A stretch of 64,000 nt of DNA, from NCBI RefSeq assembly GCF_003334815.1, contig NZ_QOWO01000004.1, one strand, 5' to 3'. Every line of letters starts with the position of its first letter. The stretch's first letter is position 1. The notes below the pieces were generated by a model that did no database searches, had not been told where the DNA came from, and saw nothing but the letters and a program-made list of their open reading frames with translations. The DNA comes from Escherichia coli. Lineage in GTDB: Bacteria; Pseudomonadota; Gammaproteobacteria; Enterobacterales; Enterobacteriaceae. Positions 15,311 through 16,035 of the stretch are shown piece after piece. The translations under genes were made by a program, and so were the position numbers.

Positions 15311-15509
15311 AATATTTCGCGGGTAGTTATATTATATTTCAATGAATAATAACAACTAACCATTAAAATTATTTCTATATGGGGAAAACCCACTCAAGAA
15401 TAAAAATGATAATGCAATTTTATCAGGATACAATTCAATTTCGGCCTGATAATGATTAACTCCCACAGGTTTTTGCTAACTTTGACTACAAAGGGATTCT
15501 GGAGAAAAA

Positions 15510-15971
15510 ATGAAAAAGATATTACTTATGTTGAGTCTGCTATTTTTTACTACCGCGGGCTTTAGTGAAGTTTCGGATACGTTAGTGACGGGAGGTTATG
15601 ATAAACAAGCGATGTCTGACGCGATTAAACATGCGCGTAAAGAAACTGATCAATTCATCGAAGTTATGAATAAAAAAGATGCCGATACTTTCGCAGTCAA
15701 AGCCCCGATAACCGATCACGGAAGAACCGAGCATTTCTGGCTCACGGATGTCACTTATTCTAACGGCATGTTTATTGGCGTAATCAGCAATGACCCTAGT
15801 ATTGTTACAAACGTAGAATATGGCCAGGAGTGGAAAATCAAGAAAGAAGATATTTCAGACTGGATGTATACGCGCGGGGATAAAATTTACGGCGGTTATA
15901 CCATTGATCCTTTATTGGTCACCTATCCAAAAGAAGAAGCCGACGAGCTTAGAGCAAAATTAGTTCGCTAA
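15510..15971 (+). CDS. yegJ: Secreted DUF2314-family protein YegJ
   Basis: 153-aa ORF with N-terminal signal peptide (MKKILLMLSLLFFTTAGFS); AT-rich flanks. Confidence 0.85.
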   Translation: MKKILLMLSLLFFTTAGFSEVSDTLVTGGYDKQAMSDAIKHARKETDQFIEVMNKKDADTFAVKAPITDHGRTEHFWLTDVTYSNGMFIGVISNDPSIVTNVEYGQEWKIKKEDISDWMYTRGDKIYGGYTIDPLLVTYPKEEADELRAKLVR

Positions 15972-15998
15972 TCAGCCGTTATATTTATTGTTTAAACT

Positions 15999-16026
15999 GG
16001 CGGTTGAATTGTTGTCTTCAACCGCC
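15999..16026. terminator. Hairpin between convergent yegJ and yegK
   Basis: Perfect 10-bp stem GGCGGTTGAA/TTCAACCGCC with 8-nt loop between the two convergent stop codons; T-rich on the minus-strand side. Confidence 0.45.
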
Positions 16027-16035
16027 ATGAGAAAC

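Follow-up and report, generated by a model that had tools for sequence, protein, structure and literature searches.

To our knowledge, YegI and PphC form the only eukaryotic-like Ser/Thr kinase/phosphatase pair that has been characterised in E. coli. Rajagopalan, Nagle and Dworkin 2018 (J Bacteriol) and Rajagopalan and Dworkin 2020 (FEBS Lett) described that in K-12 strains the gene yegJ lies between pphC and yegI and faces in the opposite direction, while in REL606 and O157:H7 the two genes share a 4-nt ATGA overlap. The authors suggested that yegJ disrupts the coordinated expression of pphC and yegI. Rajagopalan and Dworkin also reported that pphC expression was not robustly detected and that yegI expression was very low (stationary-phase REL606). 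The protein family of YegJ, DUF2314, has been described as Imm34, whose members are predicted to act as immunity proteins in polymorphic toxin systems; the family is defined by an ExxW motif and occurs in mixed polyimmunity loci (PMC3482391). In genomic SELEX with K-12 the RpoD holoenzyme bound the spacer between yegI and yegJ, and an H-NS site was found there too (PMC3946193). In EAEC 042 yegJ was up 223-fold in a delta-hns background at 37 C (PMC7582179). The difference between K-12 and B strains and its reading as a disrupted operon are thus already published, and the literature also contains the Imm34 assignment and the effects of H-NS. However, the Rajagopalan papers compared few strains and did not establish the polarity, the frequency or the boundaries of the change.

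We studied the locus in a stretch of E. coli DNA of 64,000 nucleotides, which we call the window. To the published picture we add a census over 5,426 genomes (36% with yegJ, 64% with the contiguous operon), a firm polarity based on 79 outgroup loci and the exact limits of the change, a 785-for-50 bp replacement that re-codes 17 codons of yegI and two of pphC. We further found both states on the same flanking alleles, which points to recombinational shuffling, and a syntenic yegD-yegJ-mdtA arrangement in Superficieibacter; lipobox residues in the protein family suggest that YegJ is exported. We also found that yegJ is not confined to 'K strains', which corrects PMC13232886. Our main reading, to which we assign a probability of roughly 80%, is that positions 15260-16044 are a derived, compositionally foreign cassette that is carried by ~36% of E. 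coli and replaces 50 bp at the pphC/yegI junction.

Between 11 and 20 kb the window matches strain 52F4 with 100% identity and K-12-type genomes with ~97%, and the gene order is alkA-yegD-yegI-yegJ-pphC(yegK)-yegL-sib/ibs-mdtA-mdtB. The ORF layout places the Ser/Thr kinase gene yegI at 13364-15310, the PP2C phosphatase gene pphC (yegK) at 16036-16797 and yegL, which encodes a vWA domain protein, at 16794-17453, all three on the minus strand. yegJ (15510-15971, 153 aa) is the sole plus-strand gene in the block from yegI to yegL, just as the earlier note had observed. pphC and yegL overlap by 4 nt, and together (16045-17453, minus strand) they make up the portion of the split operon that lies upstream of the islet. 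The window does not hold a coupled eSTK/PP2C/vWA operon with contiguous genes on one strand: 725 bp and an opposite-strand gene separate pphC from yegI. On the outer side of the kinase gene, the stop codons of the convergent genes yegD and yegI (13351-13364) are only 12 bp apart with no hairpin between them. Between yegL and mdtA there is a single module of Sib antitoxin RNA and ibs toxin (17600-17748; Rfam RF00113, 142 bits). The number of ibs repeats varies between strains, as we counted two to four copies in the other E. coli genomes that were fetched.

The spacer between the divergent genes yegI and yegJ (15311-15509, 199 bp) has a GC content of 29.6%, and only 0.67% of all 199-bp windows across the 64 kb are equally low. 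For the spacer on the right of yegJ (15972-16035) we computed 39.1% GC. It had been claimed that yegJ is flanked by markedly AT-rich sequence on both sides. This is correct for the left spacer, but the right one is only mildly AT-rich because it contains a GC-rich hairpin. A comparison of GC content and codon usage between yegJ and its neighbours had also been proposed. In GC content and GC3 we found yegJ below them: its coding sequence shows 40.7% GC and a GC3 of 0.416, compared to 50-52% GC and a GC3 of 0.48-0.52 for yegI, pphC and yegL. Among 44 long ORFs yegJ has the fourth lowest GC3 (z about -1.5). The islet as a whole has ~37% GC compared to 51% for the window, and it combines this atypical composition with a patchy distribution. 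The window contains a further AT-rich block at 50254-55097, where a cluster of minus-strand ORFs shows the lowest GC3 values of the window (0.33-0.45).

The boundaries of the polymorphic segment were read from an alignment of 16 haplotypes. Homology to the genomes without yegJ stops at 15259 and restarts at 16045. The segment thus covers 15260-16044, that is 785 bp in place of 50 bp, and the net gain of 735 bp agrees with block lengths of 4,090 and 3,355 bp, respectively. An islet had been proposed at 15311-16035; the islet itself is real, but its limits have to be moved outwards as the segment extends into both flanking genes. On the yegI side, positions 13364-15259 (minus strand) are orthologous across all haplotypes. 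At the boundary the identity falls sharply from ~97% to 56%, just ahead of the conserved glycine loop GRELGKGGEG. The replaced 5' end of yegI (15260-15310, minus strand, 29% GC) consists of 17 codons, MKTNIKVFTSTGELTTL, which stand for 15 ancestral codons, MKPTLYTATGECVTP. The new N-terminus nevertheless keeps the pattern x-T-[LF]-[YFV]-T-[SA]-x-G-...-GRELGKGGEG that we found in most of more than 70 YegI homologues, and the new start looks like that of another, diverged yegI and not like random DNA. On the other side the replaced 3' end of pphC (16036-16044, minus strand) comprises the last two codons and the stop, ...LW-AE* compared to the ancestral ...LW-LP*, and in the ancestral form this stop overlaps the start of yegI.

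We considered whether the start of yegI had diverged in situ after a clean insertion. This would need at least 18 substitutions and a 6-nt insertion within 45 nt, while the adjacent sequence is ~97% identical and none of the three sub-alleles described below shows an intermediate, and we rejected it as the main explanation. The islet carries none of the mobility signatures that we looked for (integrase, tRNA site, flanking repeats), just weak repeats at its ends that are at chance level. A transposon or MITE was rejected as well, with both terminal inverted repeats and a target duplication absent. No known RNA family matched the islet at E values up to 1. When plasmids were searched with YegJ (tblastn), the only matches were distant DUF2314 genes and chromosomes of E. 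coli that had been mislabelled, and the search of phages gave no match. The donor search found no source of a yegI-yegJ-pphC arrangement outside E. coli. YegJ-like proteins with 78-90% identity (P0010, P0011, P0085 and P0107) were discarded as donor intermediates: they stem from E. coli assemblies that are chimeric or of low quality. A homologue with 61% identity (P0027) lies in an unrelated context and was discarded too. For recognising a donor we propose the string MKTNIKVFTSTGELTTLGRELGKGGEG, paired with YegJ within 1 kb.

The yegL-pphC-yegI block is present in 5,417 of the 5,426 complete E. coli genomes. We detected the 725-bp islet in 1,934 genomes (36%) and an intact contiguous pphC-yegI junction in 3,472 (64%), and these two states cover all but about a dozen of the E. 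coli genomes that carry the triad. The earlier note had proposed to compare this locus between genomes, and the comparison gave a clear answer: wherever yegJ is missing in these 64% of E. coli, yegI directly adjoins pphC. The same adjacency without yegJ was observed in three other Escherichia species, in Klebsiella spallanzanii and in 71 of 75 more distant loci. This outgroup set was obtained by scanning one genome per species (GTDB) for PphC, which gave 79 loci, the window excluded. It includes E. whittamii, two further Escherichia species, K. spallanzanii, many Burkholderiales, Pseudomonas and Frankia as well as myxobacteria, Paenibacillus, planctomycetes, Chloroflexota and cyanobacteria. 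In 75 of these 79 loci pphC and yegI share a strand and yegI comes straight after pphC, with a reach to Firmicutes, Actinobacteria, Myxococcota and Planctomycetes.

Seven islet-free junctions (six Escherichia loci and K. spallanzanii) were read base by base, and in all seven the stop of pphC overlaps the start of yegI, either as ATGA or as GTGA. In O157:H7 this is a 4-nt overlap (ATGA), as it is for yegL and pphC. Piscinibacter has a short gap between pphC and yegI and no overlap. The junction TGG TTA CCA TGA AAC or a close variant of it occurs in O157:H7, E. whittamii, the two other Escherichia species, E69 and K. spallanzanii, and these loci also have closely similar YegI N-termini (MK-x-x-LYT-x-x-G), which read MKPTLYTATGECVTP or a variant in the Escherichia outgroups and K. 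spallanzanii. Because the outgroups hold the same junction without yegJ almost base for base, the contiguous operon is the ancestral state and the state with yegJ is derived. The polarity of the event, the boundaries of the segment and its frequency in the population are thus established by observation. A later insertion that split an ancestral kinase-phosphatase-vWA operon, as the earlier note had suggested, is supported by the census, by the adjacency in the outgroups and by the composition. Had yegJ occurred in every genome with the triad and been indistinguishable in composition, this suggestion would have failed; clearly neither is the case.

As a second possibility a functionally linked secreted partner had been proposed. 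yegJ would then have been recruited because its product works together with the kinase/phosphatase/vWA module; it could be exported and serve the membrane kinase as a ligand or modulator, for example. The tight nesting of yegJ in the module and the divergent promoter spacer that it has in common with yegI are in line with such a role, as is the report that overproduction of YegJ raises yegD and triggers envelope stress (PMC13232886). The co-occurrence data, however, do not support it. A YegJ/DUF2314 homologue within 6 kb is missing from all 79 triad loci of other genomes, and no kinase gene lies beside YegJ homologues in the three contexts that we read (the two closest outside E. coli and one with 61% identity). 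Moreover, the module does without yegJ in 64% of E. coli. We consider a partnership of this kind unlikely.

The closest YegJ proteins outside E. coli, with 74-75% identity, were found in Superficieibacter electus and a related metagenome-assembled genome. The gene order in Superficieibacter is alkA-yegD-yegJ-mdtA-mdtB with yegJ on the strand of yegD and mdtA. There is no kinase, phosphatase or vWA gene beside this yegJ, and a search for relics of yegI or pphC next to it gave none at E values up to 10. At the DNA level yegJ is 74.5% identical to its E. coli counterpart, and the syntenic neighbours reach 75-79%. In Superficieibacter, too, yegJ has a higher AT content than the genes around it, which suggests that it was acquired there as well. 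In S. electus (L082:6914-11261) an island of predicted immunity genes (SUKH_5/SMI1_KNR4, Tli3, Tle3_C, Imm52 and DUF1240) lies directly downstream of yegJ, between yegJ and mdtA; the related metagenome-assembled genome (L083) is without this island. In Salmonella enterica and Citrobacter freundii the interval just reads yegD-ibs-mdtA and is without the triad. The nearest triads outside Escherichia were those of K. spallanzanii and of Burkholderiales such as Piscinibacter, at ~62-63% amino acid identity for PphC. The order yegL-pphC-yegI is conserved over many phyla, and the whole triad (13364-17453; loci L006-L081, L100 and L102) looks horizontally acquired in Escherichia. The contents of the yegD-mdtA interval thus differ, and the uptake of cargo with them, by genus: Escherichia gained the triad and Superficieibacter gained yegJ, to which S. 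electus added the immunity-gene island.

The same arrangements could be read in reverse, with yegJ as an old resident of the yegD-mdtA interval and the horizontally acquired triad as the intruder that was assembled around it. Superficieibacter shows the arrangement of K-12 minus the triad, with yegJ on the same strand and nearly as similar to its E. coli counterpart as the syntenic neighbours are to theirs, and both the distance to the nearest triads elsewhere and the bare interval of Salmonella and Citrobacter mark the triad as foreign to this interval. However, such a model must split an otherwise contiguous operon and place its halves on either side of the resident gene, and it needs a loss of yegJ in Salmonella, in Citrobacter, in the other Escherichia species and in most E. 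coli. The atypical composition of yegJ in Superficieibacter argues for an acquisition there as well, and the re-coded start of yegI, which looks like a genuine diverged YegI N-terminus, is left unexplained. As the operon is contiguous in nearly every locus that we examined, the probability of a resident yegJ is low and we regard it as very unlikely.

Within E. coli the junctions of the islet are identical in all seven yegJ-positive haplotypes that we examined, and for this reason the islet fits a single origin. The haplotypes fall into three sub-alleles. Between these the coding sequence of yegJ is 97.2-98.7% identical, compared to 97.1-99.0% for yegD, and the promoter spacer is the most variable part of the islet with an identity of 86-89%. 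As yegJ has diverged about as much as yegD, the islet is old relative to the diversification of E. coli. Both states also occur on nearly identical flanks. The yegJ-negative strain SW4848 has a pphC that is 99.6% identical to that of the yegJ-positive strains Ecol_316 and ST3, and the yegD of the yegJ-negative strain 2015C-3163 is 99.8% identical to that of two yegJ-positive strains, including 2014C-3599. This indicates that homologous recombination moved the two states between lineages. The age of the islet and a documented secondary loss, in which IS1 copies replace yegJ (strain 510016), would suit an ancestral yegJ and a deletion that joined pphC to yegI in 64% of E. coli, but such a deletion would have had to recreate exactly an ancestral-looking junction, with the stop/start overlap and the consensus YegI N-terminus, that is orthologous base for base in E. 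coli, three other Escherichia species and K. spallanzanii, and together with the contiguous order in 75 of 79 loci over many phyla this leaves the deletion largely refuted and hardly credible.

In strain 510016 (L094) two IS1 copies replace yegJ and split pphC, the last 64 bp of the islet are left, and IS150 and a remnant of IS421 lie nearby; we interpret this locus as the secondary decay of a yegJ-positive haplotype. pphC itself is unusually diverse in E. coli, with 90-97% identity between ordinary strains and ~80% for E69. This diversity matches the level between Escherichia species and exceeds that of yegD (96-99%). The pphC allele of the window is rare, with just four records of at least 99% identity across the 4-kb block.

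A promoter scan placed a promoter-like site for yegJ (ATGATA-17-TACAAT) at 15406-15434 on the plus strand of the divergent spacer, and by direct reading we identified a second one for yegI (TTGTTA-18-TATAAC) on the minus strand, from 15355 to 15326. The divergent promoters predicted in K-12 have the same hexamers as those of the window (PMC3946193). In the window the leader of yegI is very short and lacks a Shine-Dalgarno sequence. Between the stops of the convergent genes yegJ and pphC we found the perfect hairpin of 10 bp that had been noticed at 15999-16026; it is in fact one pair longer, with an 11-bp stem at 15998-16008 and 16017-16027 and a loop of 8 nt. Its folding energy is -18 to -22 kcal/mol (z compared to shuffled sequences: -3.0 for the plus strand and -4.3 for the minus strand), and the stem is kept in all three sub-alleles of the islet. 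The hairpin has the GC-rich stem-loop of an intrinsic (Rho-independent) terminator. On neither strand is it followed by a T-run or U-tract: the plus strand continues with AUGAGAAAC and the minus strand with AGUUUAAAC. The terminator scan did not call the hairpin, the reason being the missing T-run after the stem on the plus strand, and with no U-tract termination is not assured. We regard the hairpin as a candidate for a two-way transcript end or a stabiliser.

Taken together, we favour the derived cassette and propose the following course of events. The ancestral yegL-pphC-yegI would have been a single operon in which each gene overlaps the next by 4 nt and translation is coupled. The donor probably already had yegJ beside a yegI, as suggested by the fit of the new YegI N-terminus to the family pattern, and the E. 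coli haplotype may have arisen by recombination at conserved motifs. The cassette would have brought four elements: the opposite-strand gene yegJ for a DUF2314/Imm34 protein with an export-type N-terminus, the 199-bp AT-rich divergent promoter region, to which H-NS would bind and silence yegJ, the strong hairpin between the now convergent genes yegJ and pphC, and a new start of yegI with 17 re-coded codons and no Shine-Dalgarno sequence that would be uncoupled from pphC. In strains with yegJ the operon would then be divided into two units: yegL-pphC, with its end near the hairpin, and yegI, which would be initiated on its own and probably be controlled by H-NS. With the phosphatase/vWA pair and the kinase as separate expression units, their ratio would no longer be fixed by coupling. 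These effects of the cassette on transcription and translation are what its layout leads us to expect. yegJ itself would be a silenced accessory gene with a possible immunity function.

The YegJ protein matches Pfam DUF2314 (PF10077) with E = 1.7e-25 over residues 33-146. It combines a hydrophobic, signal-like N-terminus with an invariant EHFW and a small beta-barrel core. In an alignment of 16 sequences E74-H75-F76-W77 and D117 are invariant, which fits the ExxW motif and the C-terminal Asp of Imm34. The AF2 model has a pLDDT above 90 for residues 30-153 and shows residues 1-25 as disordered. The N-terminus, MKKILLMLSLLFFTTAGFS, resembles a signal peptide, and most homologues have a lipobox at that position. 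In the same alignment the lipobox Cys is absent from E. coli YegJ, which reads TAG-F-S compared to x-G-C-S in most homologues; the Superficieibacter proteins have AGYC there. A signal-peptidase I site or an uncleaved anchor is possible in E. coli YegJ, and the signal-like leader together with the lipoprotein signals across the family makes export plausible. Any immunity function of YegJ would follow by analogy with the family. No toxin or polyimmunity gene lies beside yegJ in the window, where its neighbours are yegI and pphC only, and the defence-system and NCBIfam models gave no match for YegJ. We know of no Imm34/DUF2314 member with a demonstrated immunity function.

A study from 2026 classes YegJ as cytoplasmic and reports that it binds RNase E's catalytic domain (PMC13232886), which conflicts with export as deduced here. 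The YegJ clones of the two-hybrid library began at residue 16, and overproduction led to membrane leakage, induction of Cpx and Psp and raised expression of the neighbouring yegD together with envelope stress responses (PMC13232886). These overproduction phenotypes might also be expected of a protein that is directed to export. Native YegJ with its signal-like leader (15510-15585, residues 1-25) and RNase E may be in different compartments, and the family-wide export signals of the homologues affect how data on the interaction of YegJ and RNase E are interpreted.

A more speculative reading, which we consider doubtful though possible, joins several of these observations into one claim. In Enterobacteriaceae the yegD-mdtA interval would be a site where orphan immunity genes land repeatedly, YegJ would be an exported Imm34 immunity protein against a competitors' toxin that acts in the periplasm, varying exposure to this toxin would maintain the old presence/absence polymorphism in E. 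coli, and the islet would have arrived by homeologous recombination from an unsampled lineage with yegI-yegJ-pphC. If this were true, the yegI start codons would be a remainder of the donor lineage, a Ser/Thr kinase/phosphatase switch would have been rewired as a side effect, and the cytoplasmic interaction with RNase E would stem from the use of non-exportable constructs.

For work on the kinase and the phosphatase the practical consequence is that K-12 represents the minority with a split operon, while B strains, O157:H7 and most isolates have the coupled version. Results on expression or phenotype may thus not transfer between strains with split and coupled backgrounds. Beyond its relevance for the kinase and the phosphatase the yegJ islet is an ordinary small insertion of an accessory gene.

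Besides the published difference between K-12 and B strains at this very locus, two described systems are closest to it. The first is the Imm34 family of Zhang, de Souza, Anantharaman, Iyer and Aravind 2012. E. coli YegJ differs from most DUF2314 homologues in having Phe for the lipobox Cys, and its gene differs from the usual Imm34 context in that no toxin or other immunity gene is adjacent. It shares with the family the profile match, the ExxW motif and a mostly beta core, and in S. electus yegJ abuts a mixed immunity-gene island in the manner of a 'heterogeneous polyimmunity locus'. The second system is formed by the islets under xenogeneic silencing. Unlike the usual H-NS-silenced islets, the yegJ islet is tiny, with one gene and no integrase, tRNA site or flanking repeats, and it lies inside an operon and not alongside one. 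What it has in common with them is the low GC content and the patchy distribution among strains and, according to the literature, H-NS on the yegJ spacer and a very strong de-repression of yegJ in a delta-hns background.
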